A DNA stretch of 64,000 nt, taken from an uncultured Gammaproteobacteria bacterium. Its GTDB lineage: Bacteria > Pseudomonadota > Gammaproteobacteria > Pseudomonadales > Halieaceae. A program made the position numbers and the translations under genes. The stretch's first letter is position 1, and the number at the start of each line of letters is the position of its first letter. The DNA is taken from NCBI GenBank assembly GCA_963840725.1, contig CAWIZY010000007.1, forward strand, positions 78,474-142,473. The letters are read 5' to 3'. A model generated the notes under the pieces. That model had not been told where the DNA came from. It worked only from the letters and a program-made list of their open reading frames with translations, and did no database searches. Below are positions 36,771 to 62,026 of this stretch, one piece after another.

Positions 36771-37571
36771 GTGTCCGCGGCGACCAGGTGTAGAGCCGTC
36801 GCGGCCCGATACGGCGTGAAGATTTTTTGGTTCTGCACGCTTGTGCTCGGCCTGTGTAGCGGCCTCGCGCAGGCCGCGGGGCAGCCGCAAGGGCCGGCAA
36901 CGGTGGCCCCCTCTAACGAAGAATGTGTGATCCTGCTGCATGGATTGTGGCGGACTCAACTATCGATGCTTGCCGCAGAGTGGAAGCTGGCGTATGCGGG
37001 TTATCGAGTGGTCAATAACAGCTACTCCTCCCTGACCCGCAAAATTGAGGAAAACGCCCGCGCGGCAATCGATCCGGCACTGGATGAATGCCGTGCTGAG
37101 GGGGCTACGCGGATTAGTCTTGTCACCCATTCTCTCGGTGGAATTCTGGTTCGACATTATCTCAGCAAGCAGCCGATAGCAGAGTTGGGACGCGTCGTGA
37201 TGATGGGCCCACCCAACCAGGGAAGCGAGTTGGCAGATTACTATGCTGCGTTGATTACCGCCGACTACCTGGAGCCGCCCGCTCTGGCCCAGTTGGGTAC
37301 CGGGCCAGAGTCAGTACCGCTCGAATTGGGGCCGGTTGATTTTGAACTCGGGGTTATCGCGGGCAATACACATCACCGCAATTTTTTGCCGGGTCTGCCC
37401 GACGGGCCAGGCGATGGCACTGTCAGCGTCGCTGAAACTGCGGTCGCGGGAATGGCAGATTTCATAGCAGTGCCCGCCAGCCATACTCTGATGATGTGGA
37501 GCGACACGGTACTCGCCCAGATGGTGTATTTTCTGCGCCACGGAGCGTTTGATCATCAACCGCGGCGCTGA
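36771..37571 (+). CDS. Secreted alpha/beta-fold hydrolase (esterase/lipase-like)
   Basis: 'VILLHGL' and the nucleophile elbow 'VTHSLGG', with an N-terminal signal-like segment. Start is ambiguous (GTG 36771 or GTG 36816). Confidence 0.75.
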   Translation: MSAATRCRAVAARYGVKIFWFCTLVLGLCSGLAQAAGQPQGPATVAPSNEECVILLHGLWRTQLSMLAAEWKLAYAGYRVVNNSYSSLTRKIEENARAAIDPALDECRAEGATRISLVTHSLGGILVRHYLSKQPIAELGRVVMMGPPNQGSELADYYAALITADYLEPPALAQLGTGPESVPLELGPVDFELGVIAGNTHHRNFLPGLPDGPGDGTVSVAETAVAGMADFIAVPASHTLMMWSDTVLAQMVYFLRHGAFDHQPRR

Positions 37572-37607: not shown

Positions 37608-37880
37608 TTACTGCTGTCTCCGGTCTTTCGGAATGAGAACACCATCTATCATCAGCGGGAATGCGACCAGCCGGTCGCTGCGCCTCTCGTCCCGGCCCTG
37701 AGAGGAGCGTCCTTGCGTTTGTCGTGAGTCGGCGTAGGAAGAGGGTTCACCGGCGGACATATTGTCATCATCGCTGGAAACATATCTGCGGGCCGCAAGC
37801 GTGAACACATAGACGCCTGCGGCTGCGGTCGCCAAACCCAGGGCCCCCACAATGAGGTAAAAACTGTTTATGTCAGACAC
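37608..37880 (-). CDS. 90-aa single-pass membrane protein, hypothetical; putative sigma-54/PrsR target
   Basis: GTG start. It has an N-terminal TM helix ('FYLIVGALGLATAAAGVYVFTLAA'), then a polar/charged tail ending 'ERRSDRLVAFPLMIDGVLIPKDRRQQ'. A strong sigma-54 promoter match lies about 40 nt upstream. No family recognised. Confidence 0.5.
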   Translation of the reverse strand: MSDINSFYLIVGALGLATAAAGVYVFTLAARRYVSSDDDNMSAGEPSSYADSRQTQGRSSQGRDERRSDRLVAFPLMIDGVLIPKDRRQQ

Positions 37881-38061: not shown

Positions 38062-39498
38062 TTATCGCGCGCCCTTGCCGAACAAGACAACTTCTACCGT
38101 TGTCAGCAGGATCATACAATCCAGGAACAGGCTGTGGGTCTTCACATAGTAAAGGTCGAACTGCAATTTTTGCTTGGCATCTTCCTCGCTAGCTCCGTAG
38201 GGGTAGCAGAGCTGCGCCCAACCGGTAATTCCTGGCTTTACACAGTGGCGCACATCAAAGTAGGGGATTTTCTCCGCCAAATCTGCGACAAACTGAGGCC
38301 GCTCCGGGCGGGGCCCGACAAATGCCATATCGCCATTGAGCACATTGAGTATCTGCGGTAACTCATCTATACGGACTTTGCGTATAAAGTTGCCCACACG
38401 GGTTACTCGACTGTCATTGGCCGTCGCCCACCGCGCCTTACCGTCGCTTTCAGCATTGACTGACATGCTGCGAAACTTCAGCACCTCAAACCGGGTGCCG
38501 CCGAGCCCGACCCGCTCCTGGCGATAAAATACCGGCGCATCAAATCCGTCCTCCAGCCAGATTGCGATTGCAGTACCGAGCATCAGTGGCCAGGAGACCA
38601 GCAATAGCAGCAGGCTTGAGATCACGTCAAAGCAGCGTTTGCACAGCATTGCCGCTGTGCCCTGCTGGAATCCGTCTGCAAAAATCAGCCAGCCCGGATT
38701 GATATAATCAACCAGGATCTTTCCGGCCTCCTGCTCAAAGAAGGTGGTAATCTCAACTACCTTTACGCCATCCATTCGACACTGCATCAAGTCCTGCATT
38801 TCCAGAGCCGTGCGTTTGTCGTCAACCGCCACAACGATCTCGTCGATTTCCATTTGCTGAGCGTAACTGGGCAAGTGTGGCACCTGGGCGATCACCTGGT
38901 CAGACTGAATAGAGGTTTTCTCGCCATTTACCTTCATAAAGGCGAAGATCGAGAAACCCCGCCGATCTGACTTTCTGCGCATCGATGTGGTGATGGTGTT
39001 AGCGGTCTGACCCGTCCCGAGCACCAGAACACGTCGTTTGAACTGATCGAGGTCGGTAAGGTTAACAAACGCCAGTCGGCTGGCCAGGCTGGCGATAAAA
39101 GCAATGGAGGCCGTGTAAACAAAGATTCCGCGCCATACGAAGAGGTTGGGCAGGAAGTAGTAAATAAGCGACATGCCAAGGGTGACAATGATAAAAGCGC
39201 CGACGGTACGCAGCAGAATTCCACTGGCACCTTCACGCATTCGTGGCTGGTACAGGCCCATCGCTACCATGCTGATGACTGACACCGCAGAAAAGAGGGC
39301 CGCTCTCATAGGTACCTTATTGAGATAGTCATAGAGACTCCCCGGTTCGAGCAAAAAGTAGAGATAGGTGCCGAGGTAAAAGGAAAGAAAAAACAGAATG
39401 CTGTCGACTATCACCAGATGGTAGATCGCCCGAGGGACATGATGATTAAAGACCTTTACAGTTGCCACTAGTTGTATACATCCTTTTTGCAGGGGCAA
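38062..39498 (-). CDS. PEP-CTERM/XrtA-system-type initiating sugar transferase (TIGR03013-like, bacterial sugar transferase family)
   Basis: 'FYRQERVGLGGTRFEVLKFRSM' and 'DELPQILNVLNGDMAFVGPRPERP'. The N-terminal TM block beginning 'VKVFNHHVP' resembles the TIGR03013 N-terminus. The real start may be the GTG at 39468 rather than the TTG at 39498. Confidence 0.85.
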   Translation of the reverse strand: MPLQKGCIQLVATVKVFNHHVPRAIYHLVIVDSILFFLSFYLGTYLYFLLEPGSLYDYLNKVPMRAALFSAVSVISMVAMGLYQPRMREGASGILLRTVGAFIIVTLGMSLIYYFLPNLFVWRGIFVYTASIAFIASLASRLAFVNLTDLDQFKRRVLVLGTGQTANTITTSMRRKSDRRGFSIFAFMKVNGEKTSIQSDQVIAQVPHLPSYAQQMEIDEIVVAVDDKRTALEMQDLMQCRMDGVKVVEITTFFEQEAGKILVDYINPGWLIFADGFQQGTAAMLCKRCFDVISSLLLLLVSWPLMLGTAIAIWLEDGFDAPVFYRQERVGLGGTRFEVLKFRSMSVNAESDGKARWATANDSRVTRVGNFIRKVRIDELPQILNVLNGDMAFVGPRPERPQFVADLAEKIPYFDVRHCVKPGITGWAQLCYPYGASEEDAKQKLQFDLYYVKTHSLFLDCMILLTTVEVVLFGKGAR

Positions 39499-39681: not shown

Positions 39682-40888
39682 CTAAAAACAGGCTTGCAGC
39701 GGTAGCGGATGACTCAAAAAGTGAAGCGGGCTTGCACTATAGCCATAGGCCCCCGACTGGTAGATAACTACCAGATCACCGACCTGTGTCACTGGCAGAT
39801 CAATGTTCTGGGCCAATATGTCAAGCGGTGTGCACAACGGCCCCACGATGTTGACAGTTTCGGTCTGCTGCGAATGAATGCGATTCCCAATGGCAACGGG
39901 GTAATTCTTGCGGATAATCTGGCCAAAATTGCCCGAGGCAGCCAAGTGGTGATGTAGTCCGCCATTGGTGATCAGGAACGCCTGGCCTCGCGACAGTTTT
40001 CGGTCTGTTATCTCGCAGACATAGATGCCGGCCCCACCGACCAGGTAGCGGCCCAGCTCAATCACAAGTTCAATGCCGGGAAACCGATGTTCAGCCACGG
40101 CGGCAAGGCGCTCGAGATTTTGAGCGATCGGTGTCACGTCCAGCGCTTCCTCTCCGGGGAAATACGGAATACCCAAACCGCCGCCCAGATTGAGCCATTT
40201 CAGCGCTACCTGGGTTTCCTCGGCCAGCCGCATTGCGAGTTCCAGAGCTTTGGTGTGTGTGTCAATTATGGCCTGTGTCCGAAGACTCTGGGAGCCGCTG
40301 AAAATGTGGAGGCCGATGAAGTCGACAGCCAACTCCGGCAGTCCTGCCAGCACCGAGGGAACGACCTCTGCGTCGATGCCAAAGGGCCTCGGCCCGCCAC
40401 TCATTTTCATGCCAGCTGTCTTCAGCTCGAAGTCGGGGTTGACCCGAATGACTACCCGGGGCCGCTTGCCGCGTTGGCGACCCAGCGCAGCCACTCGCCC
40501 CAGTTCACGCTCCGATTCGATCACAATGATCACGCCGCCGTCCACCGCTGCTGACAGGTCCTTAGCGGATTTTCCAGGCCCAGCGAAACTGATGGTAGCG
40601 GGGTTTATGCCGGTCCCCAGTGCGATGTCGAGCTCGCCGGAGGAAGCCACGTCCAGTCCGTCGGCAATGGCCGCGAAGTGCTTGACGACCGCTGGCATCG
40701 GGTTGGCCTTGACTGCATAGTGAACGTGCACTGCAGCGGGAAAGCACAGACCTCAGGTTGGACATTGTCTGGCTCATAACTGCCCGGTCGTAGGCGTAAA
40801 ATGGCGTCTGACCCAGTTCGCTCGCCAGTGCGGTCAGCGCTCGACCACCAATTTGCAGTTGGTTGTCGGCGATGGGAAACTGCGTCAT
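39682..40888 (-). pseudogene. Exosortase-A-associated PLP-dependent decarboxylase (TIGR03099-like, DapDC/ODC fold), interrupted by one frameshift
   Basis: The N-terminus 'MTQFPIADNQLQIGGRALTALASELGQTPFYAYDRAVMSQTMSNLRSVL' (40930 frame) continues as 'PAAVHVHYAVKANP...' only in the 40731 frame. The switch falls at the TTT run on the coding strand (plus 40741-40743), consistent with one extra base. Confidence 0.8.
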
Positions 40889-40926: not shown

Positions 40927-42530
40927 TCAACGGTCTGGTTCCAGGAAAGTGTTCTTGTGTTGACTGGCCAGTGAGGTTCGATCGATCTTGCCGTTAGGGT
41001 TAAGCGGCAAGCTATCAACTACAAAGATTGCCTTGGGCACCATAAAAGCTGGCAGTTCATGACGGCACTGCCTCATTAGCTCCTCCCGGGTGCTGTGATC
41101 GCCGTGCGGCGGTGTGTTGAGGCTGACCACCAACGCAATCGCCTGACCGATATCGGGATGCGGCAGTCCAAGCGCAGCGGCCTCGACCACTCCGGATATG
41201 TTGAGAGCAACCTCCTCAATTTCAGAAGGGCTGACGCGATAGCCGGATGTCTTGATCAACTGATCCTCGCGACTGATAAAATACAGGTAGCCTTCGCTAT
41301 CTTTCATTACCCGGTCTCCGGACCACACCGCCAGTTCAGTCAAAGGCAACTGGGGGGCGGCTGGGCGGGGCATGGACGAAATCGTATGGCGGTGGCTTCC
41401 GGATCGTTCCAGTAACCCATGGACACCATTGCGCCCCGGTGCACCAACTCGCCGGATTCACCAGGTCACACGGCTGGTCCGTCGTTATTGATCACCAGTA
41501 TCTCGGCATTGGGGATCGCCCTGCCAATGGAATCCGGACGCCGGGTCACCTGATCAGGTGGAAGGTACGTGGACCGGAAGGACTCGGTAAGACCGTACAT
41601 AAGGTAAATGTCGGTGTCTGGCAGTTTTTTCTGCAGTGTCCGCGTTGTGGCGACGGGCATGGCTCCGCCGGTGCTGCTGACGAAACGCAACGACTCTGCT
41701 GCCTCGGGGGGCCAGTCCAGATTAGACAGCTTGTTCCACAGGGGAGGTACGGCCGCTAGCCCGGTCACCCGGTAGTGACAGACGGCCTTAATGACGTCCC
41801 CCGGGAGCAGGTAATCCAGCAGCACAACGCGGGCGCCGGCGACAAATGCAGTCGTCAGCTGGCTCAGCCCCGCGTCAAAGCTCAGCGGTAACACCGCCAG
41901 CAAGCGGTCACCGGCAACTGTATGGGTATACTCGGCGACACTGCGGGCCCCCGCCACCAGGTTGCCATGGGACAGGACAACACCCTTGGGTTTACCGGTG
42001 CTGCCGGAAGTGTAGAGTATGGCGGCGATGTCCTGGTCTATGCGCTCACGTGTCACTGGCCGGCGCGACTGGCCGAGCGCCGACCATGAAAGAACCTCGG
42101 CCCGGAGCGGAAGCTCTGAGGGCGTTGCCGTGACCTCCTCGACAAGGATGATAGAGCCGAGGGACCGGCACCCGGGCAGGGTTGGTGTCAATAGCTGCAG
42201 GCGCTGAGACGAGGTGATCAGGACTTTGACGTCACAATCATCGAGTATATGCAGCACCTGCCGGGGTTTCAGCAGGGGGTTGATCGGCACAAAGCAGGCA
42301 TTGGCATACGAGCTGCCGAACAGAGCGAACACCGTCTCTGGTAGCTTGGGTAGAAATACGGCGATGCGGTCGCCCGGACCAACGCCAAGCTGCTGCAGGC
42401 CCGATGCAACAGAAGTTGCTGCCGCTTCCAGTTCAGCATACGTAACCTGCCGTTCACCCGCTTGCAGGGCGATAGCGTGCGGACACCGTGCAGCTTGTTC
42501 ACTGATGCAGTCGTGTATGAGTGTGGTCAT
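40927..42530 (-). pseudogene. Exosortase-A-associated acyl-CoA ligase (AMP-forming, TIGR03098-like), interrupted by an in-frame TGA and a frameshift
   Basis: The N-terminal part (start ATG 42530, 'YTSGSTGKPKGV') ends at TGA 41466-41468, yet the same frame continues 'PGESGELVHRGAMVSMGYWNDPEATAIRFRP'. The C-terminal part ('AVWSGDRVMKDSEGYLYFISREDQLIKTSGYRVSP') is in another frame, and the switch is most simply placed at the C6 run (plus G6, 41352-41357). Confidence 0.8.
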
Positions 42531-42757
42531 TAAACGTGCTAAACCCCCGGTCTCTGCTTGTGGTAGCAGCCAAGCTATTGTAGCTTCAAGCCTCGGCGCC
42601 ATAGAAGTAAATAGTGGGGATTCAAGCACTTGTCTGAACAATCATATCGATCACTCCATCATCCATATCGGTTTTCCTGTGCTCCATTGCGGCGACAACG
42701 GGCTGACCTGTTAACGGGTTCACTGCCGGTAGCGGTCGAGTCCGAGCGGGGGCCCAG

Positions 42758-46025: not shown

Positions 46026-46041
46026 AGTCCGTCATTGAGGT

Positions 46042-46058
46042 TGTCAGGATATTTTACA
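46042..46058. promoter_or_regulatory. Putative enhancer (UAS): TGT-N11-ACA, AT-rich core
   Basis: TGTCAGGATATTTTACA, preceded by GAGGT. It lies 76 nt upstream of the -24 GG at 46135, inside an AT-rich intergenic stretch. Confidence 0.5.
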
Positions 46059-46133
46059 CTGGAGCCTCGAGCAGATGTTTTTTTCACGCCGTAAAATTTT
46101 TAAATGTATGATTTAAAAGAATTATTTGTTTAT

Positions 46134-46149
46134 TGGCACGTTAGCTGCT
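46134..46149 (+). promoter_or_regulatory. Sigma-54 (-24/-12) promoter of the PEP-CTERM protein gene
   Basis: TGGCACGTTAGCTGCT has a single mismatch to TGGCACG-N4-TTGCW. The -12 GC lies 95 nt upstream of the ATG at 46242. Confidence 0.7.
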
Positions 46150-46241: not shown

Positions 46242-47165
46242 ATGAAACTATTGTTAAAAAAAGCTGCGATCGCTGCATCTCTGGTGGCGCTGAGTTCGAC
46301 AGCAAGCGCGATGTCGTTCCAGAGCAATGTGATGCTCGACGTTGGGGACAACGAGTACGACCTGCAAGGGGCTCCGTTCTTCGGCACGCAGGACGGCGAC
46401 ACACTGACCGGATTGTTTGATCAGTTTGGTTTCAGTCAATTTTTGGCCACTTCGGTGTACGATTTCACCGATGGCGAGATCTTTGGGGATTTTTACGACT
46501 CGAACAGAGCCGGTGACCTCCCGTTTGTACCGGGGTCAGGTACGGCGCTGGATGGAGAGACAACGGTAGTATTCAGGACTCCTGAGGATCCTGCACAGGT
46601 CGATATCGATGCGTTGTCACCACTGGCCCCGCCCTTAGACTCTGACAATGAGGGTTTCCTGGGTACTTGGGAGCTGGTGGCCGACTACACGTTTACCGGC
46701 AACCTCTCGCCTGTTGGACCGAGCTATACTGGCGGCGATATCAACTTCACTTTTCGGGAGCGAGTCGACGTCGGTGGTGATGGTGTACTGGACGAGTTCC
46801 TGGCATTGACGCTGACCGTCACCGGTTCGCAAATCGACGCGGCGAACCTGGCTGTGCTGTTTGACGTGACTTTTGCCGCAGACAACTTCCTGATGGTCGA
46901 GACACGGCCCGGTGTGTTTGTCGATGCGGCGGATTTGGTAGGTACCATGTCCCCGGTAATGGCGAGGCTTGATACCAACGTTGATCCGCCCATTCCAACG
47001 CCCGATCAGCTGCTCCTGGTTGATACGGATGGTGATGGGGTAGGCGACGCGGTGGCTCGCCAGTCGACTCTGGATGGTTCTATCGGCTTCCAGGTTCCGG
47101 TACCCGGTACTCTGCTGCTGATGGGACTGGGTCTGATGGGCCTGGGCTTGCGCAAGCGCAGCTAG
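46242..47165 (+). CDS. PEP-CTERM sorting-domain protein (secreted, exosortase substrate type)
   Basis: ATG at 46242 follows GGAAGGGG. It has the signal peptide 'MKLLLKKAAIAASLVALSSTASA' and a C-terminal 'VPVPGTLLLMGLGLMGLGLRKRS' (PEP-like motif, TM helix, basic tail). Confidence 0.85.
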   Translation: MKLLLKKAAIAASLVALSSTASAMSFQSNVMLDVGDNEYDLQGAPFFGTQDGDTLTGLFDQFGFSQFLATSVYDFTDGEIFGDFYDSNRAGDLPFVPGSGTALDGETTVVFRTPEDPAQVDIDALSPLAPPLDSDNEGFLGTWELVADYTFTGNLSPVGPSYTGGDINFTFRERVDVGGDGVLDEFLALTLTVTGSQIDAANLAVLFDVTFAADNFLMVETRPGVFVDAADLVGTMSPVMARLDTNVDPPIPTPDQLLLVDTDGDGVGDAVARQSTLDGSIGFQVPVPGTLLLMGLGLMGLGLRKRS

Positions 47166-47224: not shown

Positions 47225-47248
47225 GGGGCGCGAGAGCGCCCCTTTTTT
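47225..47248 (+). terminator. Rho-independent terminator
   Basis: GGGGCGC-GAGA-GCGCCCC followed by T6. Confidence 0.85.
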
Positions 47249-50226: not shown

Positions 50227-53200
50227 ATGACTGCAGAGACTGTCAACCCTCGGGTGAAGTTGTCGGCAAGGATTCTTGATAATCCCTGGAAAGTCCTGCT
50301 GGCGAGCGTGTTGCTTATCGCCCTGGCTGCTATGCTTCTGCCTCAACTGGTAACAGATACAAGACCCAACACGTTTCTTGCCCCTGATAACCCGGCGCTT
50401 GTTTACCGCGAAAAAGTCAAAGAGCAGTTTGGACTCAGCGACCCATTGATAATAGCGGTCGTAAATGAGGGGCCACACGGAATTTTCAATCCCGGGACAC
50501 TGGCGCTGGTGGATTGGCTCGCAACAGAAGTAGCGGCCCTTCCCAACGTTGATGAGAACCGGCTGCAAAGTCTCGCAACCGAAAGTAACATCAGGGGCAG
50601 TAGTGACGGGCTGGAGGTCGCACCTTTTTTCGACCCGGTACCGGCGACGCAGAGGGAGGCGGACCTCCTTCGAACGCAGGTTGAAGACTTTCCACTCTAC
50701 CGGGGCACGCTGGTAGCCGAAGATGGTTCCATGACTCTCTTGATCGTGGAAATTCTCAATGAGTTCGAGGTCGAGGAGACCTACGCGAGGCTTACTGCAC
50801 TGATCGATTCGGCACCGGTTGGGGCGGGTGAGAAGCTTCACATAGCGGGCGAGTCGGCCATTGCGGGATTTCTGGCGGTATATATCGATGAGGATGCCCG
50901 CAAGCTGAATCCCCTGGCATGGCTTATTATCATGATCATCTTTCTTGTCGCCTATCGACGCCTGAGCCCAGCGCTGATGGCAAATTTTATCATCCTGGCG
51001 GCGGTGATCATCAGTATAGGCTTCATGGCAGGCAGTGGCGTCCCCTTCTTCATGATTACCACCGCCCTGCCGGTGATATTGATCGGTATCTCGGTGGCTG
51101 ACACCATTCATATATTCAGTCACTATTTTCAGCTTCAGGCGGAGGCGCCGGAGCGCGAAGTAAAAGACCTGGTGGGTCAAACCATGCTCGAGATGTGGCG
51201 GCCGGTTACCCTTACATCCTTGACCACAATAGCGGGCTTTCTGGGGCTCTACCTTGCGGCATTTATGCCTCCCTTTCGTTTTTTTGGCTTGTTTGCAGGG
51301 CTCGGTGTCGCTGTTGCCTGGCTTTACTCATTGTTGGTGCTGCCCGCTGCCATGGTGTTGATCAAGCCGCGAGTTTCCCCGGGCTTTGCGGCCAATTTCA
51401 ACAGCCAAAGAACCGATATTTTTGGCCGTTTCATGGCGGCCCTGGGAGGGTTGACGCTGGGGTATCCACGCTGCGTGGTGGCCGTCGGGGTGATTATTCT
51501 TGCGGTGGGTGTGTTTTCTGCGAGTCACTTGGTGATTGAAGAGGACCCAATAACGATCTTTCACCCCGATGAGCCTATCGCCCGCGCCGATCGAGCGATC
51601 AATCAGCACATGGCGGGCAGCAATATCCTCGACGTAGTGGTCGAAAGCCCGGGTGTTGAGGGTCTTTTCGAGCCCGAAACCCTTAGAAAAATAGATGCGA
51701 TGCAACGCTACGCTGAGAGCCTGCCTCATTTGGGCGGCTCGGTGTCGATCGTGGACTACCTGAAACAAATGAATCGCGTATTGCATGATGGTGCTCCCGA
51801 GGCGTACGAATTGCCGGGCAGCAGGGAGCTGGTAGCCCAGTATTTCCTGCTCTATTCAATGTCGTCGGATCCGACGGATTTTGAAGAGGAGGTTGACTAC
51901 GACTACCGGACGGCGAACGTACGATTCTATGTCGATTCTGGCAGCTACCGGGATTTCAAGGTGATCGTTGAATCGCTAAACCAGTACCTGGCAGAGAATT
52001 TCAATGATGATCAATTGACTGCAACGCTGAGTGGTCGGGTGAATCTGAATTATCACTGGATCAGCGATCTCGGACGCAGTCATTTCATGGGCCTGGTAGT
52101 TTCGCTGTTTTTGGTCTGGGGTATGGCATCACTGATGTTTCGGTCCCTACTTGCCGGGGTTTACGCGCTGGTCCCGGTGGCCAGTTCGGTTCTGCTGGTG
52201 TACGCTGCCATGGTGGCCATGGGAATGAGTATCGGTGTGGGTACGTCCATGTTCGCTGCGATCGCGATCGGCCTGGGCGTCGATTTCTCTATTCATACAC
52301 TGGAGCGAATGCAGGTCCTGTACCGTCGGAATGGTGAGAACACTGCGCGGACATTCGCTGAATTCTACCAATCTACGGGGCGAGCGCTGCTGTTTAACTT
52401 CCTCGCCATTGCCTGTGGTTTTGGCGTTCTTATCTCTAGCGAAGTGTCTTCTTTGCGGAATTTCGGTGGAATACTGGTGATTGCCGTCGGTGTCAGTTTT
52501 TTTTCCAGCATGAGTCTACTTCCTGCAATGCTGGATTTGTTCCGCCCAGCGTTCATCTCGGAAAAGACGACTTCCACTGCGCTTGGTTCCTTGTTGCTGA
52601 GTATTGGTCTGGTCGGGCTAATGATTGTCGCTTTAGTGCTGACTGTGCCGGCTGCTCGTGCCGAGACCGGGCCGGAGACCGCAATAGGCAGTGCCATGGC
52701 GAAGCAGCCGCTGGCTGAAACGACAGCTCCCGGTGGGACGGTTTTGGAAGCGTTAGAGGCGGAGCAGAAAACAACGGACGAAGGCGAGGGTGGTGGCTCT
52801 GCGGCAGATACTCCCGATATGCCGTTGTCGGACGAGGCCACAGTCACCGCCGATGACATTGTCCAGCGGGTGAATTCTGCAGATCGCGGTGAACATGTTG
52901 TCAGGCAGTTGGAAATGGAACTGATCGACCGGCGCAACAAGCGTCGGGTCCGCAAGACGACTAACTATCGTAAATACTATGGTGAAGAAATGCGTACGGT
53001 GATGTTCTACCGCGAACCTGCCAATATACGGGGTACGGCTTTTCTGATCTGGGATTACCCCGAACTGGACAAAGAGGATGATCAATGGCTATACCTGCCC
53101 GCGCTGCGCAAAGTGCGCCGGGTGTCGGCGTCGGATCGGGGCGATTACTTCCTGGGAACGGATTTTACCTTTGAAGATATCAGGCTCGACGGCCGATTGG

Positions 53201-53571
53201 AGTCTCGGGATTATCATTACACATTACTTGGCGAAGAATCCCGGGGAGGGGAAACGGTCTATTTGCTCGAAGCCATGCCAGTGAGTGATGAAGTTAGCAA
53301 GGCGCTGGGCTACTCGAAAGTCAGGATGCAAGTCAACGCCGAGAGCTGGATAGTAAGTCAAATAGACTTCTGGGATGTCAAAGGGAATCCACTGAAGACC
53401 TTACAGGTTGAAGAGGTGGAACTGGTGCAGGGAATCTGGACACGGAAAGTGATAGCAATGAACAATATCAAGACGGGGCACAAGACACGGTTCACCTTCT
53501 CCGGTGTGGATTATCAGGCAGAGGTGACCGATCGTGTATTCACCCGGCAAGCATTGGCACGCGGCCGATGA
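50227..53571 (+). CDS. COG1033/MMPL-type RND exporter fused through an extra TM helix and an acidic linker to a LolA-like outer-membrane-lipoprotein-sorting domain
   Basis: 1114 aa from ATG 50227, 6 nt after the prsT stop. The RND body ends around '...LDLFRPAFI' and is followed in frame by 'LGSLLLSIGLVGLMIVALVLTVPAARA' (signal-anchor-like). A low-complexity linker and a LolA-like module ('FYREPANIRGTAFLIWDY..DDQWLYLPALRKVRRV..DFTFEDI') complete the protein. Confidence 0.8.
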   Translation: MTAETVNPRVKLSARILDNPWKVLLASVLLIALAAMLLPQLVTDTRPNTFLAPDNPALVYREKVKEQFGLSDPLIIAVVNEGPHGIFNPGTLALVDWLATEVAALPNVDENRLQSLATESNIRGSSDGLEVAPFFDPVPATQREADLLRTQVEDFPLYRGTLVAEDGSMTLLIVEILNEFEVEETYARLTALIDSAPVGAGEKLHIAGESAIAGFLAVYIDEDARKLNPLAWLIIMIIFLVAYRRLSPALMANFIILAAVIISIGFMAGSGVPFFMITTALPVILIGISVADTIHIFSHYFQLQAEAPEREVKDLVGQTMLEMWRPVTLTSLTTIAGFLGLYLAAFMPPFRFFGLFAGLGVAVAWLYSLLVLPAAMVLIKPRVSPGFAANFNSQRTDIFGRFMAALGGLTLGYPRCVVAVGVIILAVGVFSASHLVIEEDPITIFHPDEPIARADRAINQHMAGSNILDVVVESPGVEGLFEPETLRKIDAMQRYAESLPHLGGSVSIVDYLKQMNRVLHDGAPEAYELPGSRELVAQYFLLYSMSSDPTDFEEEVDYDYRTANVRFYVDSGSYRDFKVIVESLNQYLAENFNDDQLTATLSGRVNLNYHWISDLGRSHFMGLVVSLFLVWGMASLMFRSLLAGVYALVPVASSVLLVYAAMVAMGMSIGVGTSMFAAIAIGLGVDFSIHTLERMQVLYRRNGENTARTFAEFYQSTGRALLFNFLAIACGFGVLISSEVSSLRNFGGILVIAVGVSFFSSMSLLPAMLDLFRPAFISEKTTSTALGSLLLSIGLVGLMIVALVLTVPAARAETGPETAIGSAMAKQPLAETTAPGGTVLEALEAEQKTTDEGEGGGSAADTPDMPLSDEATVTADDIVQRVNSADRGEHVVRQLEMELIDRRNKRRVRKTTNYRKYYGEEMRTVMFYREPANIRGTAFLIWDYPELDKEDDQWLYLPALRKVRRVSASDRGDYFLGTDFTFEDIRLDGRLESRDYHYTLLGEESRGGETVYLLEAMPVSDEVSKALGYSKVRMQVNAESWIVSQIDFWDVKGNPLKTLQVEEVELVQGIWTRKVIAMNNIKTGHKTRFTFSGVDYQAEVTDRVFTRQALARGR

Positions 53572-54910
53572 AAACCGTTTTCTCGCTGTCGGCCCCGGGC
53601 TGTCTTGTCCTCGCGAGTCTTCTCGCTCAGGCGGGCGATTCTGGCGTTGAGGTGAATTTCGATGGGACCTGGGAGCAGGAGTGGGCCATTGCAACCGAGG
53701 GCGGAGGCAATCAAAAATTTGAGGCATTAGTAGAACCTCGACTGGACCTGGGATTCTCCAATGGCATGCAATTAACCGCTATCGCCAGGGTAAGACTGGA
53801 TACAGTGGGTGAGTTAGGCCCTGCCGAGCGAAGACCAGACAACTATTCGGGCGCTAATGGTCCATGGTACAACGACGAGTACGGCGAATTGTCGCTCCGA
53901 GAATTGTACCTGGATGCCAATTGGGGCAACACTGTCTGGCGGCTGGGTAAGCAACAAGTAGTGTGGGGGAGGCCGACGGGATCAAGGTCCTGGACGTGGT
54001 CAATCCCCAGAGTTTCAGAGAGTTCATCCTGGATGACTTCGATGATTCACGAATACCCCTCTGGACCGTAAACGCAGAGCTACCGGTTGGCGCTGGCGGC
54101 ACGGTCCAGTTGCTCTGGATACCGGACACGACCTACCATGAGCTTGCGGAGCCAGGTACCCCGTACGAATGGACCAGCCCACTCTATGTGCCTCATGGGA
54201 AAAACGCAGCGATTGTAGCTGCGCGCGCGCCGGACAAGCCGGATAACCCGCTCCAGGACAGCGACGCTGGAATCCGCTATTCCACCTTTGCGGGTGGCTG
54301 GGACATGACCCTCAATTACCTTTACCATTATCATGATCTGCCGGTTTTTTATCAGCGAGCGACCCATGACCAGCAGCCTCTGGAGCTTACCGTGGCTCCT
54401 GAGTACGAGCGCAACCATCTGCTCGGAGGAACGCTGAGTAACGCGTTTGGGGACACGACTATACGCGCTGAAATCGCCTACTCAAGCGACACATTTCATA
54501 CCACTGACCACCCCACATACTCTAACTCGGGCATCGAGGAGTCGTCGGAGCTGGCGGCTGTTCTGGGTTTGGACTGGCAGCTGGGGGGAAGTGACAAGTT
54601 CCTCAGTTTGCAGTGGTTTGTCAGCCATCTCTTCGATTATCGCCGCGACATCATAAGGGATGAAACAGAACACAACCTCTCCGCCTTGTACCGGCAGATG
54701 TTCATTAACGAGACACTGCAGCTGGATGTTCTGGGTCTCTACTCACCGAATCGAGGGGACTCCTCTGTGCAGTTGAAGCTGAGTTATCTGGTCAGAAGCA
54801 ACCTGGAACTCTGGGTCGGTGGCGACTTTTTCAGCGGAGATGACGATGGATTGTTCGGCCAGTTTGCTGATCGTGACCGAGTATTGCTGGGCTTTAAGCT
54901 GGGCTTCTGA
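53568..54910 (+). pseudogene. DUF1302-like outer-membrane beta-barrel protein, interrupted by one frameshift
   Basis: ATGA overlap with the RND stop, and a signal peptide. '...LRELYLDANWGNTVWRLGKQQVVWG' (53568 frame) continues as 'EADGIKVLDVVNPQSFREF...' only in the 53963 frame. The switch is at the G5 run at 53965-53969, consistent with one missing G. Confidence 0.7.
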
Positions 54911-55108: not shown

Positions 55109-56473
55109 TTATTCATCTCTGATTCCAAGCTTCTGCACCAGGTTGTAAAGGGTCGGGCGAGAAAGCCCTAGCAGGGCGGCCGCATCAGAGATGTTCTCGT
55201 TAGAGTGCTCCAGCGCCCGCAGGATAGCCTTGCGTTCTGCGTCCTCGCGCACCATTTTCAGATTCAAGGGCAAGACTGAGGCCTCTGGATCCCCCAACTC
55301 CAGATCGGTCACCGAAATGTATCTGCCGTCTGCCATAATGATCGCTCGCTTGACCCGGCTCTCCAGCTCGCGAACGTTTCCGGGCCAGGCATAATTTTCA
55401 ATAGCGCTGACGGCCTCTTTGTCAAACGCCAGGATATTGCTGTTGAGCTCGGCGGAAAATCGTCGCAGGAATGCTCTTGCCAGAACCAGTGCATCGCCAC
55501 CCCGATCTTTCAGTGGCGGGATGGTGATTGTGATATCGCTGACCCGGTAGTAGAGGTCTTCGCGAAACCGTCCTTCTTCAATTAGCTGCTGCAGGTTTTG
55601 GTGGGTGGCGCAGATTATCCGGACATCGACCGGGATCTCTTTGCGCCCACCCACCCGCTCCACGACTCGCTCCTGAATGAAACGAAGCAGTTTGGCCTGC
55701 AGCTCGAAGGGAAGATCTCCAATTTCGTCGAGGAACAGGGTGCCGCCGTTGGCGCTTTCTATCTTGCCAGGTGTGGTTTGTGCAGCGCCAGTGAATGCGC
55801 CTTTTTCGTAACCAAAGAGCTCGCTCTCAAGTAGGTTTTCAGGAATTGCAGCGCAATTGATAGCGACCAGCTTTCCTGAAGAGCGCCGACTCAGTTCATG
55901 CAGTGCACGGGCGAAGCGCTCTTTGCCCGTGCCACTGGCACCCAGCAGCAAGGTAGTGACATCAGCCGGGGCAACTTTCTCCACCGTGCGACAGACCTCC
56001 AGCATTTCCGGGCTGGTCGCAATGATGCCAGACAGTGGCATTTTGTCCTTGCCCTGTTTAAGTCTGCGGTTCTCTGCTTCCAGCTCATAGACGCTGTAGG
56101 CACGGTCTACGATAAGGCTGAGTATTTCTGCATCCACCGGCTTCTGATAGAAATCGTAGGCACCCATCCCTATTGCCTGGACGGCGTTGGCGCGGTCGTT
56201 ATCGCCCGTCACTACGATGACCTTGGTCTCGGGGGAGAGAGAGGTGATCTCTTGCAGTGTTGCCAGACCTTCCGAAACACCGCCGGGGTCGGGTGGTAAT
56301 CCCAGATCCAGAAGTACCACCCCCGGCTGGACGCGGCGCAGTTGGTTGATCGCTTCATTGCGGTCGCCTGCAATAGCGACTTCAAAGCCCTCGAAAGCCC
56401 AGCGCAGCTGGCTTTGGAGGCCCTTGTCATCCTCGACCACCAGCAGATTTTTCTTAATTTTTGTCATTACCAC
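55109..56473 (-). CDS. prsR: PEP-CTERM-box response regulator transcription factor (sigma-54-dependent, NtrC family)
   Basis: Receiver domain ('[18 protein letters not shown]'), AAA+ sigma-54 interaction domain with 'GAFTGA', and a C-terminal Fis-type HTH. 454 aa, adjacent to prsK. Confidence 0.9.
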
Positions 56474-56498: not shown

Positions 56499-58559
56499 TC
56501 ATGCCGCGTCACTCGCTAGCAGTGGAATCTCCACACGGAATATCGAACCCTGTCCGGGTGTGCTCTCAACGGTGATGTCTCCACCCAGTGAGCGGATGAA
56601 TTCGCGGCTTTCGAATGCGCCAATACCCATGCCCGTGAGTCCCTTGGTTGAGTCAAATGGTTTAAACAGGCGATTGTTAATGAAAGTTTGTTCCATTCCC
56701 GAGCCACTATCCGCTACTTCAATAGTCGCGTACTGCCCGTTTTTGCCCAGCCTCACTCGCACGGCTCCCTCTTTGTCAGTGGCCTCCTGGGCGTTTTGGA
56801 TAAGATGCCCAAACACGGTCTGCAGGCGATCGCGGCTGGCCTGTACTGAGGGGTGAGAATCCGCAGTAAAGGTGGGAGCCGGCGTCTGAGCGCTGCGCGC
56901 TTCGACTACCTCTTGCAATAGCTCAGTGAGGTCTACCTGCAGGGCGGTGGTGCCGCGCATTCCACTGCGCATCTGCTCCATCAGCTTGGTCATCCGATCG
57001 ACCGAGTTACTGATGGTACTGATCATATCATCGACAAAAGCCGGGTTGTGCTTGTGCTTCTCGGCATTGGTGACCATGAGAGACTGCTGAGCGAGAATGT
57101 TTTTAAGGTCGTGAATAACATAGGCTGAGAGGCGGTTAAATGCCTCAAATTGCCGCGCTTCGACCAATTCCTCGTTGGCGAGAAATTGTGCGAGGTGGCT
57201 TGCTGCCTGGCGCCCTGCAGTTTTTAGCAGGTCTCGGTCTTCCCAATTCAGTGACTTTTTCAGCTCGGATCGCTTTAACAAGAGAATACCTTCCAGGTCC
57301 TCTTTGAACATCAGCGGGATAATGAGCCAGGCATCCGGCGTCCGGAGCAGCCAATCGGGTAACGACAGGTCGCCGTAAATGTCCGAGGCAGACTGAAACT
57401 CCTCGATGTCGATGACCCAACCCCTATGGTGCAGCCACTCGGTCAGCTCAGCCGTCATCGGAGTTTCAACTGGCGTGTTCATTTGCCAATTTTCCATCAG
57501 GCGATAGCGCCCGTCTCCGCTGGTAGCCCATAGCAGTCCACCCGTGCTGTCTACCAATGGAGCCATGGCCCGGGTGATACCTCCTGGTACGTTATCGCCG
57601 ATGGAGGCCAGGGTCTGGGTAAACTTCAGCCACTCTTCCCGATAGTCATATTTATAGCTGAAGAAGTGTTTGTTCAACAGCACTCTGACCGTGGCGCGTA
57701 TCTTTCCGGAAAAGAGCAGGGCGAAGAGCAGGGCGGCGGTAGCCATCAGAAACGAGACCTGTAAAATCCCACCCCAGGTTGCGTTCATGTATTTTATGAA
57801 ATAGCCGGCTAGCGCCATCAGTATCAGATAGAGTCCGGCTCCCAGCAGCGTGACGCTGTGGAAGACCACTTTGCGCGATACCTGCAGGCTGAATTCGGTG
57901 GAGGTACTTCTCGACACTGAGACTGCGATCAAAGGGGCGGCGATGGCGTTAACAAGCCCGCGGGCCTGCCAGAGCTGTGGGTCCAGTTCCCGGAACAACA
58001 ATCCTTCAGCGTACATGAAAAAATCGTAGGCGTAGATGCCACCCAGCCCAAGGCAGAGGTATTTCAGCGCCCAGCGTTCACTGTCGCTGGAGTTGCGGAA
58101 CAATTGCTCAATCAGCAGCAGGCCGCCTATGGCCATGATCAGCCAGATAAGGAAAATCGTGTTGCTGTACAGGGTGTAGTCAATTGCAAAGTGCCTCATC
58201 AGGGGCCTGAGGAGCAGAATGACGAGAGCGGCCAGTCCGATTCCAAAGTAGGCTCTGCGGGTCCAGTGATGGGCGGAAAAGCCGGGTTGATTGTCAAAAC
58301 GTAAAGCGAGGATCTTCAGGAGAAACACCAGCCAGGCTGCGTTTCTTGCCCACTCGCAGAGCTCAATGAGCTTGACCGGTGGGTACTCGTTAAGGGTGCC
58401 GAGTGCGATCACCGCAGCCCAGAGGCTGGTCAGGGCGCTGACAGCAACGAGGAGAATGCCCAGACGCCTGCCGCGCCAGGTGGCGATCAACAACACGGTC
58501 AGCAGTGCATAGGCGATGGCACTGGTCGAATAACTGTATAAGCCCACATTGGCGAGCAT
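56499..58559 (-). CDS. prsK: PEP-CTERM system histidine kinase
   Basis: 686 aa. It has a long polytopic N-terminal region, a GAF-like segment, a HisKA domain ('YVIHDLKNIL') and a HATPase domain ('VADSGSGM'). Confidence 0.85.
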   Translation of the reverse strand: MLANVGLYSYSTSAIAYALLTVLLIATWRGRRLGILLVAVSALTSLWAAVIALGTLNEYPPVKLIELCEWARNAAWLVFLLKILALRFDNQPGFSAHHWTRRAYFGIGLAALVILLLRPLMRHFAIDYTLYSNTIFLIWLIMAIGGLLLIEQLFRNSSDSERWALKYLCLGLGGIYAYDFFMYAEGLLFRELDPQLWQARGLVNAIAAPLIAVSVSRSTSTEFSLQVSRKVVFHSVTLLGAGLYLILMALAGYFIKYMNATWGGILQVSFLMATAALLFALLFSGKIRATVRVLLNKHFFSYKYDYREEWLKFTQTLASIGDNVPGGITRAMAPLVDSTGGLLWATSGDGRYRLMENWQMNTPVETPMTAELTEWLHHRGWVIDIEEFQSASDIYGDLSLPDWLLRTPDAWLIIPLMFKEDLEGILLLKRSELKKSLNWEDRDLLKTAGRQAASHLAQFLANEELVEARQFEAFNRLSAYVIHDLKNILAQQSLMVTNAEKHKHNPAFVDDMISTISNSVDRMTKLMEQMRSGMRGTTALQVDLTELLQEVVEARSAQTPAPTFTADSHPSVQASRDRLQTVFGHLIQNAQEATDKEGAVRVRLGKNGQYATIEVADSGSGMEQTFINNRLFKPFDSTKGLTGMGIGAFESREFIRSLGGDITVESTPGQGSIFRVEIPLLASDAA

Positions 58560-58825
58560 AGAGAGTGAGTCCCGGTGAGTGATCCGTGGAGATTGTCCGA
58601 ACTGTGGTGCTGGTCACGCAATGACATAGCATCGGTTTGGCAATAACCCTATACTCTGTCTGCGTGAGTGTAAACGTGGAACTGACCCGAGTGAGAGCTG
58701 CCGCACAAAAGGCGGGCGGCTGAGAATGGCGGTCATGAAAAACGCGCCGTCACCTACGTTTTTGGGCGGCGATACAGCTAATGAATCAGGGTAACTTTTC
58801 TTTGAAAACAGAGGAATCGAAATCG

Positions 58826-59865
58826 ATGCCGTTCAGCGACCGGCTATCGGATAAGCTCTCGGCAGTGAGCGCTACATGGCTAGTGACCGGTGCCGCCGGC
58901 TTCATTGGTTCAAACCTGGTTGAATGCCTTCTGGAGCATGACCAGTCGGTGGTTGGGCTGGATAATTTTTCGACCGGACACCGCGCCAATCTGGAGGATG
59001 TTCGCGCCTCTGTCGGCGAGGATCACTGGCGCAAATTTGCTATGGTCGAAGGAGATATACGGGAAATCGAGGCCTGCCGGCAGGTGGTGGAGGGCGCTGA
59101 TTACGTTCTCCACCAGGCCGCACTTGGCAGTGTCCCCAGATCACTGGTTGATCCGATTCTCAGCAACCAGTCCAATGTCGACGGCTTTCTGAATATGTTG
59201 GTCGCAGCGCGTGACGCCGGAGTCAAGCGTTTCGTATATGCAGCCTCCTCATCGACTTATGGTGACCATCCCGGTCTGCCCAAGGTTGAAGATACCATCG
59301 GAAGGCCGCTTTCTCCCTATGCTGTGACCAAGTACGTAAACGAATTGTACGCTGACGTTTTTGCACGTGCCTATGGGATGGAGACAATCGGTCTGCGGTA
59401 TTTCAACGTGTTCGGCCGCAGACAGGACCCGCAGGGGGCTTACGCAGCGGTCATCCCGCGCTGGATTGAAGAACTGATGAGTGGAGCCGTCTGCCAGATT
59501 AATGGCGACGGCGAGACGTCCAGAGATTTTTGCTACATTGACAATACGGTCCAGGCGAATGTTCTCGCCGCCCTTGCAGACGACCCATCCGCAGCAACCA
59601 GGTTTATAACGTCGCCTACGGCGCGCGCACCACGCTCAACGAACTGTATCTGACGATTCGTGATCAGTTGGCGACCGCGCTTCCCGAACTGGTTGGTCGA
59701 GAGGCACATCGGGCCGAATTCAGAGAGGGCGATGTGAGGCACTCTCAGGCGGATATCGGGCGGGCTGTGTCGCTACTCGGTTACTCGCCTCAGTACGATG
59801 TTCACGAGGGTCTGGCAAAAACCGTGCAGTGGTATCTGGCCAGAGCAGATCAGGACCGGCCATGA
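58826..59865 (+). pseudogene. UDP-GlcNAc 4-epimerase-type SDR (TviC/VipB/WbpP-like), interrupted by one frameshift
   Basis: '[14 protein letters not shown]' and 'YAVTKYVNE' (YxxxK). After '...ALADDPSAA' the expected '[33 protein letters not shown]...WYL' is found only in the -1 frame. The junction is near 59594-59598, consistent with one missing base. Confidence 0.8.
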
Positions 59866-61262: not shown

Positions 61263-61297
61263 TAAGAGGTTGTCAGTCAGGGCTGCGGCGTCAAGCA

Positions 61298-61314
61298 TGT
61301 CAGAAATTTTAACA
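61298..61314. promoter_or_regulatory. Putative enhancer (UAS): TGT-N11-ACA, AT-rich core
   Basis: TGTCAGAAATTTTAACA lies 75 nt upstream of the -24 GG at 61390. A second copy of GAGGTTGTCAG lies at 61267-61277. Confidence 0.5.
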
Positions 61315-61388
61315 CTCAGGAGGGTGTTGTACGGTAGCCCGCGGGGGCTCCTACAAGAAAAGGCCTATAAATCAATAGGTTAAGAACA

Positions 61389-61404
61389 TGGTATGTAAAT
61401 TGCA
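61389..61404 (+). promoter_or_regulatory. Sigma-54 (-24/-12) promoter
   Basis: TGGTATGTAAATTGCA has the canonical GG-N10-GC spacing and a perfect TTGCA -12 element. It sits 56 nt upstream of the ATG at 61460. Confidence 0.6.
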
Positions 61405-61459: not shown

Positions 61460-62026
61460 ATGTCCGAAGAGAAACAGCGGGAAGACGCGGTGAGCGCGTC
61501 TCCGAGCGACCGACATCCGCTCGACAGCTCGCGTCGAAACTTCACCAGAATGGGGCTTGGGGCGCCTGTGCTGATGACTCTGGCGAGTCAGCCGGTATTT
61601 GGTGCGAATTGTGGTTCAAATGCCGCTTCCGGGAACTTGTCTGACCCGGACAGGGGGGAATGTACCAGGGGCTTCTCGGCGGAGGCTATCCTGGACTCGG
61701 GGAACTATGGCCCCAGGTATATGCACTACCACAAAATTAGGGAGACCATGCTGGGAGAGATGGTTCACATATTCCCCGGAAATCAGCAGAACAAAAACCT
61801 CAAGCAGATTTTGATGCATGGCAACGAGATGCAGACGCTGGCGGTAGCGGCAATGATAAACGCCAGTATGTCGATGACCTATATACTCACCAGCGAACAG
61901 CTGGCGGAGTTGCTAAGAAACGGGACCCCCGCCTCCAATGGTGCTTTATCGGCACGTATGCGTCGGGTTTCCATGCCTTATTACGGAATGACCACCGAGC
62001 AGTTCCTCGCGTGGACGATGATCTAG
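61460..62026 (+). CDS. Hypothetical exported protein with a twin-arginine (Tat)-type signal
   Basis: 188 aa. 'SRRNFTRMGLGAPVLMTLASQPVFGA' fits the S/T-R-R-x-F-x motif plus an h-region. No family recognised. It is preceded by a sigma-54 promoter and UAS. Confidence 0.6.
   Translation: MSEEKQREDAVSASPSDRHPLDSSRRNFTRMGLGAPVLMTLASQPVFGANCGSNAASGNLSDPDRGECTRGFSAEAILDSGNYGPRYMHYHKIRETMLGEMVHIFPGNQQNKNLKQILMHGNEMQTLAVAAMINASMSMTYILTSEQLAELLRNGTPASNGALSARMRRVSMPYYGMTTEQFLAWTMI

Follow-up and report, generated by a model that had tools for sequence, protein, structure and literature searches.

Three UAS-promoter pairs in an exopolysaccharide island

The window analyzed here is a 64-kb stretch of DNA (contig CAWIZY010000007.1; 57.6% G+C) from an uncultured-type gammaproteobacterium related to Halieaceae/Porticoccaceae. 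Its 28-64 kb part is an XrtA/PEP-CTERM exopolysaccharide island, in which three intergenic sites each contain an upstream activating sequence (UAS) followed by a sigma-54 promoter. These paired elements are the subject of this work. The 13-28 kb part, where annotated, contains housekeeping genes (gyrA, serC, pheA, tyrA/aroA, rpsA, lapB and pyrF).

The island contains epsB2 and the genes for PrsR, PrsK and PrsT, all three of which scored above the curated cutoffs:

38062-39498: epsB2 (EpsB_2); locus 3, on the minus strand, sits past its stop codon
47438-50221, plus strand: prsT, TPR lipoprotein (TIGR02917, 535 bits)
55109-56473, minus strand: prsR (TIGR02915, 695.8 bits, cutoff 502.6), with a receiver domain, a sigma-54 AAA+ domain (GAFTGA) and a C-terminal Fis-type helix-turn-helix (HTH)
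56499-58559, minus strand: prsK, sensor histidine kinase (TIGR02916, 796 bits)

An earlier reading of the window, made from the sequence alone (the sequence-only reading), had named the product of 55109-56473 as PrsR, a GAFTGA-type sigma-54 activator. The TIGR02915 score and the visible GAFTGA motif and HTH bear this out. PrsR is the only protein encoded in the window with a sigma-54-activator AAA+ domain. Its closest relatives in the genome collection were from Chromatocurvus halotolerans (74% identity) and then a Porticoccaceae metagenome-assembled genome (MAG; 71%). Further island genes encode an exosortase-A-associated decarboxylase, acyl-CoA ligase and acyltransferase, and TviB/TviC-like sugar enzymes.

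The three pairs are as follows (PWM, position weight matrix score):

46042-46058, plus strand: UAS 1 (PEP-CTERM box motif 1), TGTCAGGATATTTTACA, 17 nt with a TTTACA end; PWM 25.5
46134-46149, plus strand: sigma-54 promoter 1 (GG-N10-GC), TGGCACGTTAGCTGCT; 92 nt from UAS 1, start to start
61298-61314, plus strand: UAS 2, TGTCAGAAATTTTAACA; kept in the orthologous loci L001, L002 and L003/L004, 90-91 nt before the promoter
61389-61404, plus strand: sigma-54 promoter 2 (GG-N10-GC), TGGTATGTAAATTGCA; 91 nt from UAS 2, start to start
38025-38009, minus strand: UAS 3, TGTCAAAAAATTAGACA; 37 nt 3' of the epsB2 stop codon
37933-37918, minus strand: sigma-54 promoter 3 (GG-N10-GC), CGGCTCGATTGTTGCT; 92 nt from UAS 3, start to start

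Re-reading the window confirmed the shared two-part layout that the sequence-only reading had described, including the coordinates, the sequences and the gaps from the end of the UAS to the GG (76, 75 and 76 nt at loci 1, 2 and 3). Several genes in the window seem broken, and single-base indel errors could move these distances by one base. The GG-N10-GC spacing is present in all three promoters, which match TGGCACG-N4-TTGCW at 10-11 of 12 consensus positions. The distance from promoter to start codon is 92 nt at locus 1, 55 nt at locus 2 and 37 nt at locus 3.

The ends and the A/T core ascribed to the UAS also held up. There are only 10 TGT-N11-ACA sites in the window. Ranked by the A/T content of the core, the top three (8-9 of 11 positions) are exactly UAS 1, 2 and 3. 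When the three loci were aligned with four orthologous loci, the only invariant columns of the seven sequences fell in TGTCA..T..ACA and GG..TGC.T.

We asked how often such pairs would arise if short, degenerate motifs simply met by chance in A/T-rich intergenic DNA. TGT-N11-ACA and GG-N10-GC are each low in information. In Markov simulations with the distance left free at 60-130 nt there were 0.54 pairs per window, and 4 pairs were reached at least once in 300 simulations. The three observed pairs, however, lie inside a 2-nt distance window, and all are intergenic and oriented towards the downstream open reading frame (ORF). We estimate that about 0.02 pairs are expected per 3-nt distance window, making three such pairs very unlikely by chance. 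For three pairs whose distances agree to within 2-3 nt, we estimate a probability of about 1e-5 to 1e-6. The looser pattern TGTCA-N9-ACA-N{70,80}-GG-N10-GC had 4 matches in the window, where dinucleotide shuffles predict 0.10. The match that is not one of the three pairs is located within prsT and was discarded as a chance occurrence. Chance meetings also leave the conservation of the elements across orthologs unexplained, and we regard them as exceedingly unlikely to account for the three pairs.

The PEP-CTERM box and its spacing in other genomes

The paired elements match a known regulatory element. The PEP-CTERM box (Haft et al. 2006 BMC Biol 4:29, PMC1569441) is a 17-nt motif (motif 1) with the 3' end TTTACA, which in some cases is repeated. 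Next come a spacer (mean 62.8 nt, standard deviation 10.6, range 32-92) and a 17-nt sigma-54 -24/-12 motif. Across 13 proteobacterial genomes the DNA motif has a phylogenetic profile identical to that of PrsR, PrsK and PrsT, and occasional sites upstream of non-PEP-CTERM genes are mentioned without being listed (PMC1569441).

We compared the 3' ends of the three UASs with the published one, and positions 1-11 of motif 1 with boxes collected in this analysis. Locus 1 has the TTTACA end exactly, locus 2 has TTAACA (1 mismatch; this end occurs in 5 of 123 of the metagenome matches listed, described below) and locus 3 has TAGACA (2 mismatches). The spacers in the window, 73-75 nt, are inside the published range and approximately one standard deviation over the mean. 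The window thus shares with the published element a 17-nt motif ending (T)TTACA, an in-range spacer, a GG/GC sigma-54 promoter and the presence of PrsR, PrsK and PrsT. Locus 1 is likewise intergenic, before a predicted single-gene PEP-CTERM operon. It precedes a TIGR02595 gene. Loci 2 and 3 precede non-PEP-CTERM genes, as a minority of the published sites do. Two of the three sites differ from the published box in their targets, and all three differ from its mean spacer. The comparison with the published box had been proposed in the sequence-only reading, and motif end, spacer, sigma-54 motif and regulator genes all agree. We conclude that the three paired elements are real copies of the published PEP-CTERM box. 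The kind of element was already known, and the sequence-only reading had rediscovered it.

Boxes for comparison were collected from 80 PrsR neighborhoods. They have the same form (e.g., TGTCGGAATTTTTTACA, TGTCAAATAATTTTACA and TGTCGGCATAATTTACA), and their distances to strong sigma-54 promoters are 80, 101-103 or 113 nt. Near-identical boxes adjoin prsKR in beta- and gammaproteobacterial genomes, and boxes within 10 kb of prsR recur in many unrelated genomes. In a Sulfuricella MAG (L013), boxes are found upstream of two PEP-CTERM genes near prsKR.

We found that the distance between box and promoter falls into discrete classes. Metagenome contigs were scanned with the pattern TGTCRNNWWWWTTWACA-N{55,85}-TGGYAYRNNNNTTGCW, which allows start-to-start distances of 72-102 nt. 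The scan gave at least 123 matches at no fewer than 120 loci, and 120 of the matches listed have distinct spacers. The pattern fixed much of the motif, so a logo of the matches is not independent evidence; the distances and the downstream genes are independent. Among the matches listed, the start-to-start distances were:

Class 1: 79.6 ± 1.4 nt (n = 94)
Class 2: 91.0 ± 0.9 nt (n = 19)
Class 3: about 101 nt (n = 10), with the pattern ceiling at 102 nt

One listed match had a distance of 84-89 nt and none had 94-98 nt. The boxes at 113 nt in PrsR loci continue the series. The step of ~11 bp between classes is one helical turn, and the 75-76 nt gap in the window (91-92 nt start to start) is the class one helical turn above the shortest. 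Mixing these classes would reproduce the published mean and standard deviation.

The scan also revealed the enrichment upstream of PEP-CTERM genes that the sequence-only reading had proposed to look for. Of 99 complete downstream ORFs among the matches listed, 59 matched TIGR02595 and 66 matched some PEP-CTERM family; others include small membrane or exported proteins. Chance co-occurrence of box and promoter is ruled out by the shuffles, the ortholog conservation, and these sharply quantized distances and downstream genes, two thirds of them PEP-CTERM among the matches listed.

The spacers contain a third element. When aligned on the promoter, they show a conserved AA-N5-TGAAWAT approximately 20-35 nt upstream of TGGCAC. 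A strict consensus for integration host factor (IHF) was present in 25 of 123 spacers among the matches listed, at only three fixed positions. Two of the spacers in the window have an IHF-like site:

46101-46113, minus strand: IHF-like site TAAATGTATGATT, differing from YAANNNNTTGATW at one position, between UAS 1 and promoter 1
61370-61382, plus strand: IHF-like site AATCAATAGGTTA, exact match to WATCAANNNNTTR, between UAS 2 and promoter 2

The site at 46101-46113 shares its promoter-anchored position class with 15 of the strict metagenome sites. The site at 61370-61382 begins at -19 from the promoter start, and this is also where the best IHF-like match is found in L002 (1 mismatch), L003 (2 mismatches) and L001 (3 mismatches). 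We infer that IHF could bind at the predicted sites.

A box-like 17-mer of a different arrangement was seen in epsB2-prsK-prsR loci of Sphingomonadales. This 17-mer, TGTAAA[AG]TTTACCGACA, is inverted relative to the gene and lies 55-90 nt 5' of the epsB2 start codon, and there is no GG-N10-GC promoter between it and that start. Possibly it serves PrsR as the operator of a sigma-70-type promoter, in which case PrsR would be autoregulated. The copies are:

L078:6406, L062:6381, L061:6423, L065:6421, L054:6412, L066:6443, L083:6409, L036:6407 and L051:1261

Genes downstream of the three pairs

The sequence-only reading had assigned a PEP-CTERM protein to locus 1, a Tat-signal orphan to locus 2 and a 90-aa membrane protein to locus 3, and all three assignments stood. 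The downstream features are:

46242-47165, plus strand: PEP-CTERM protein gene, 307 aa, directly upstream of prsT (TIGR02595, 22.6 bits, cutoff 16)
47225-47248, plus strand: strong intrinsic terminator GGGGCGC-GAGA-GCGCCCC-TTTTTT, 3' of the PEP-CTERM gene and before prsT
61460-62026, plus strand: Tat-signal protein gene, 188 aa (SRRNFTR), first gene of the HPr-rel-A cassette
62263-62535, plus strand: PqqD-like ORF with an aberrant C-terminus, apparently frameshifted; misses TIGR04353
62585-63358, plus strand: HprK-related kinase A (TIGR04352, 327.7 bits, cutoff 200), which stops at profile position 232 of 280
37608-37880, minus strand: small membrane protein gene, 90 aa, with an N-terminal transmembrane helix and conserved AARRYVS and AFP..G..I..DRRQQ motifs

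Locus 1 resembles a promoter that has been mapped. In Aquincola, pepA is directly upstream of prsT, has a primer-extension-mapped, RpoN1-dependent promoter (TGGCAC...CTGCTT) and is followed by a terminator before prsT (PMC9850573). Promoter 1 carries the same TGGCAC and CTGCTT hexamers. The intrinsic terminator at 47225-47248 would make locus 1 monocistronic. As far as the available accounts go, Aquincola tertiaricarbonis RN12 and Zoogloea resiniphila MMB (PMC9850573; Gao et al. 2018 via PMC9012009) have the same order of a PEP-CTERM gene followed by prsT, likewise with a TGGCAC...CTGCTT promoter and a stem-loop terminator between the two genes, and with epsB2, prsK and prsR as further parts of the system. 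According to the account in PMC9012009, transcription of PEP-CTERM genes in Zoogloea needs RpoN and PrsK-PrsR and is lost in prsK and prsR mutants. The 2023 Aquincola paper states that the mechanism needs further clarification (PMC9850573). Unlike these systems, the window is from a gammaproteobacterium rather than a betaproteobacterium and is known from its sequence alone, and its protein scored 36.9 bits with the floc_PepA model (NF033554), under the equivalog cutoff of 80. By position, the PEP-CTERM protein of locus 1 is analogous to PepA, but it is not an equivalog.

Locus 2 precedes a conserved gene cassette. The order of the cassette is the Tat-signal protein gene, a gene for an ~100-aa 'HPr-rel-A system PqqD family peptide chaperone' (TIGR04353), a gene for HprK-related kinase A (TIGR04352) and a gene for a nucleotidyltransferase of PF14907, which we take to be the nucleotidyltransferase family of lasso-peptide clusters. 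The PqqD-family and kinase genes are adjacent in the window, which is the HPr-rel-A pairing (TIGR04352/TIGR04353), and the intact orthologs of the PqqD-like ORF in L002 and L026 scored 47.7 bits with TIGR04353 (cutoff 35). The gene order is intact in L001-L004 and in L026/L039/L057/L059. Rugosibacter, Rhodoferax and Propionivibrio have the same cassette behind prsKR, with a different Tat-signal leader protein, and there too a box is in front. A weak hairpin follows the 188-aa gene in the window, at 62016-62036.

The box in front of the cassette is conserved. There were 19 kinase-bearing loci, and 17 had enough upstream DNA. In 14 of these 17, from gamma- and betaproteobacteria, a box and a sigma-54 promoter at a phased distance were found 1.0-1.3 kb upstream of the kinase gene; several of the 14 had been retrieved independently of the DNA pattern. 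One of the others had a degenerate box and two had none. In orthologs of locus 2, UAS and promoter were kept while the spacers could not be aligned:

L001 (protein identity 75%): UAS TGTCAGAATTTTTAACA, promoter TGGTATATATATTGCA, 91 nt
L002 (protein identity 48%): UAS TGTCAGCATTTTTGACA, promoter TGGAATAAATATTGCA, 90 nt
L003/L004 (protein identity 38%): UAS TGTCAGATTTTTTGACA, promoter TGGTATAGAAGTTGCA, 90 nt

The 188-aa protein matched no Pfam or NCBIfam family and had only 11 homologs in a search of 5.8 billion clusters. An AlphaFold2 model has a confident helical core (pLDDT 84-96 at about residues 65-155), and this core had no match in the PDB with E below 5. The gamma- and betaproteobacterial first-gene products share an N-terminal block, a Tat-like SRRxF followed by P[VI]xxTLASxP....C.S, and their mature parts appear unrelated. 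In a comparison of the two families, hhalign gave 92.7% probability over the Tat-signal/Cys region only (39 columns). Homology of the mature domains was not demonstrable. A conserved N-terminal block with a variable rest, beside a PqqD-type chaperone, resembles by analogy the pattern of a leader with variable cargo.

The cassette is similar in composition to a known tailoring system. In lasso-peptide clusters, the precursor receives a phosphate from an HPr-kinase homolog and a hexose from a nucleotidyltransferase (PMC8498205). Like the tailoring pair with a PqqD-like RRE domain (paeninodin and pseudomycoidin; PMC8498205), the cassette joins a PqqD chaperone, an HprK-related kinase and a nucleotidyltransferase. 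It differs from those clusters in having no lasso cyclase, protease or short precursor; its first gene encodes a Tat-signal protein of 180-240 aa, presumed to be co-transcribed. We found no mention of the HPr-rel-A system in the searchable literature. One tentative reading, which we hold to be rather doubtful, places the cassette in the conserved core of the PrsR/sigma-54 regulon and gives it the task of protein phospho(glyco)sylation in the assembly of a matrix that depends on PEP-CTERM proteins and exosortase. The kinase would transfer phosphate to the secreted first-gene protein (or PEP-CTERM proteins), the nucleotidyltransferase would put a sugar on that phosphate, and the conserved N-terminal region of the first-gene product would be the recognition sequence for the PqqD-like chaperone. 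A phospho(glyco)sylation role is speculation from the lasso-peptide precedent.

At locus 3, the gene downstream looks like a real small membrane protein gene. Its reading frame is open in both the window and L085, where the homolog is located, and the transmembrane helix is evident. The layout in L085 is the epsB2 tail, a UAS (TGTCAGAAAACTATACA), a 91-nt distance to a promoter 16-mer identical to CGGCTCGATTGTTGCT, the small ORF and a convergent hydrolase gene; the spacer has diverged. Substitutions between the two ORFs by codon position are 39/29/52, commonest at the third position, and there are 24 synonymous codon changes. We considered whether the small membrane proteins are EppA (NF046088); neither the 90-aa protein nor its homolog matched it.

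These data bear on the possibility that only locus 1 is functional, that loci 2 and 3 resemble it only through decay or coincidence, with downstream ORFs that are not regulated in this way, and that the 90-aa ORF is perhaps no gene. Such a view could draw on the TTAACA and TAGACA ends, which depart from TTTACA, on the CGGCTC with which promoter 3 begins in place of TGGCAC, on the lone homolog of the 90-aa ORF and its lack of a family, and on the many broken genes in the window, the PqqD-like and kinase genes of the cassette among them. We nevertheless judge it very unlikely. Both elements and the 90-92 nt spacing persist in orthologs with as little as 38-48% protein identity and unalignable spacers, most cassette loci have the box, and the 90-aa ORF has third-position-biased substitutions. 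The conserved footprints at loci 2 and 3 and the box before the cassette uphold the suggestion of the sequence-only reading that the regulon extends beyond PEP-CTERM genes.

Two further observations concern small membrane protein genes and their surroundings. An alpha/beta-hydrolase-like gene (DUF7379/DUF676), at 36771-37571 (plus strand) in the window and L085:1042-1506 (minus strand), is convergent with the 90-aa gene. Transcripts from promoter 3, if unterminated, could read antisense into it. Separately, a different family of ~79-aa membrane proteins (MYLGPAFLFAAF...DPVWPWRPGFRR) repeatedly has a perfect box and a sigma-54 promoter upstream in metagenomes. This family is a predicted further non-PEP-CTERM member of the regulon and is unrelated to the 90-aa protein of the window. 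Its members include:

L092:6714-6950 (minus strand), L176:1893-2129, L187:2946-3188 (minus strand) and L199:4255-4527

Predicted activation by PrsR, and other sites in the window

Sigma-54 promoters of the NtrC/NifA type (e.g., glnAp2 and nifH) have a ~17-bp dyad for a dimer with a Fis-type HTH ~100 or more nt upstream, an IHF site in between, spacing that depends on the face of the helix, and an AAA+ activator with GAFTGA. The modules in the window are like these textbook promoters in dyad, distance, IHF-like site, phasing and GAFTGA activator. They differ in that the core of the box is TGTCA-N6-T-N2-ACA rather than TGCACC-N5-GGTGCA (NtrC) or TGT-N10-ACA (the classical NifA site), in that the site is usually single and not tandem, and in serving another signal and another regulon.

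By analogy with these promoters, the 17-bp imperfect palindrome, centered ~110 nt upstream of the predicted start, would be the enhancer site for a dimer of PrsR, an NtrC-family protein. PrsK would phosphorylate PrsR, and PrsR would then oligomerize on the 17-bp site. The -24/-12 promoter would be bound by sigma-54 RNA polymerase. Looping of the DNA would bring PrsR into contact with the closed sigma-54 complex, helped by bending at the IHF-like site that the A/T-rich spacer carries at loci 1 and 2. The GAFTGA AAA+ domain of PrsR would then use ATP hydrolysis to form the open complex. The allowed distances of ~80, 91, 102 and 113 nt, one helical turn apart, would place PrsR on the polymerase face of the DNA. 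In the window, the predicted outputs are a pepA-like PEP-CTERM matrix protein from a single-gene transcript, the cassette that begins with the Tat-signal protein gene, and the 90-aa membrane protein beside epsB2. We infer PrsR binding, use of IHF, RpoN dependence and the operon extents from sequence, in the light of what is known of the NtrC family.

The 17-mer might instead be the sigma-54 enhancer site of another enhancer-binding protein (EBP) encoded elsewhere, with the link to prsKR being mere co-location in the exopolysaccharide island. In its favor, only 64 kb of the genome is in view, we found no published account of direct PrsR binding to motif 1, and TGT..ACA ends are not specific to PrsR, given the NifA site. 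We consider this explanation improbable. It does not account for the coincidence of the motif profile with that of PrsR, PrsK and PrsT (PMC1569441), for the recurrence of boxes near prsR, or for the loss of PEP-CTERM gene transcription in the Zoogloea mutants as PMC9012009 relates it. The spacing is N11, compared to N10 for NifA, and PrsR is the sole EBP in the window. Readings of the UAS as a LysR site (T-N11-A) or a NifA site were ruled out by its strict coupling to phased sigma-54 promoters and by the N11 spacing.

Several results weigh against assigning all three pairs to PrsR. We found no experiment in the literature, in any organism, with PrsR bound to motif 1. The window does not encode rpoN. 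In the genomes with the closest PrsR relatives (L005, Chromatocurvus, and L006, the Porticoccaceae MAG), the DNA up to 10 kb from prsR contains no clean box. UAS 3 is the weakest match (PWM 18.6, compared to 25-26) and has an A-tract in place of the T-tract, its spacer has no good IHF-like site, and the 90-aa protein has a single known homolog, 44% identical, on L085. Taking these points together with the evidence above, we put the probability at roughly 85% that all three loci are PEP-CTERM-box promoter modules, each comprising a PrsR enhancer site, a spacer and a sigma-54 promoter at a phased spacing of 91-92 nt. The PrsK/PrsR control proposed in the sequence-only reading is thus supported as far as sequence analysis reaches.

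Our results refine a 20-year-old prediction and do not overturn current understanding; their value is modest. The refinements are the TGTCA..ACA dyad, the quantized helical-turn distance and the inclusion of the PqqD/kinase/nucleotidyltransferase cassette in the regulon, together with the IHF-like element and the regulatory link to the small membrane protein beside epsB2. The box before a conserved, uncharacterized protein-modification gene cassette and the spacing in one-helical-turn steps are new, and PMC1569441 makes no mention of helical phasing, IHF-like sites or the HPr-rel-A cassette. The regulatory link gives the orphan HPr-rel-A system a biological context, and the window is a clean three-promoter example. 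The wider setting is floc formation in activated sludge and aggregates in sediments and marine particles.

Several genes in the window seem to be interrupted or truncated. The exosortase-A-associated acyl-CoA ligase gene (40927-42641, minus strand) is split into two ORFs and a DUF1302 gene (53568-54910, plus strand) is also split. The TviC alignment (58781-59653, plus strand) covers only 255 of 348 profile positions, and that of the decarboxylase (39682-40731, minus strand) begins at profile position 50. This suggests indel sequencing errors (perhaps from a long-read MAG) or decay of the locus.

Other sites resembling one half of a module were set aside. Sigma-54-like 16-mers at 9298, 19454, 20363, 6141, 50300 and other positions lie within housekeeping or coding sequence, without a UAS. 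A box-like 17-mer on the plus strand at 52491-52507 (TGTCAGTTTTTTTTCCA, PWM 19.7) is inside an MMPL/RND transporter gene, has no sigma-54 promoter downstream and is probably fortuitous. An Rfam scan of the window gave no matches. A strong sigma-54-like 16-mer on the plus strand at 30352-30367 (TGGCATGGTGGTTGCA) is at the end of a wecA-like gene, 101 nt upstream of the start of the next gene (30453), which encodes a 673-aa Polysacc_synt_2/sugar-transferase protein. It has no PEP-CTERM box upstream, and may be a chance occurrence or the target of another activator.

The sequence-only reading had also noted that loci 1 and 2 share GAGGTTGTCAG. There are exactly two copies in the 64 kb (46037-46047 and 61266-61276), compared to 0.04 expected, and both are at PrsR-box promoters, but the copy at locus 2 is out of register with the UAS. 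It was rejected as an extension of the motif, being out of register there, gone in the orthologous locus L001 (75% identical) and not present in the metagenome flanks. The copy at locus 2 (61266-61276, plus strand) resembles a left half-site standing alone, 27 nt before UAS 2. It may be what is left of a second full site, or it may act as an auxiliary half-site.

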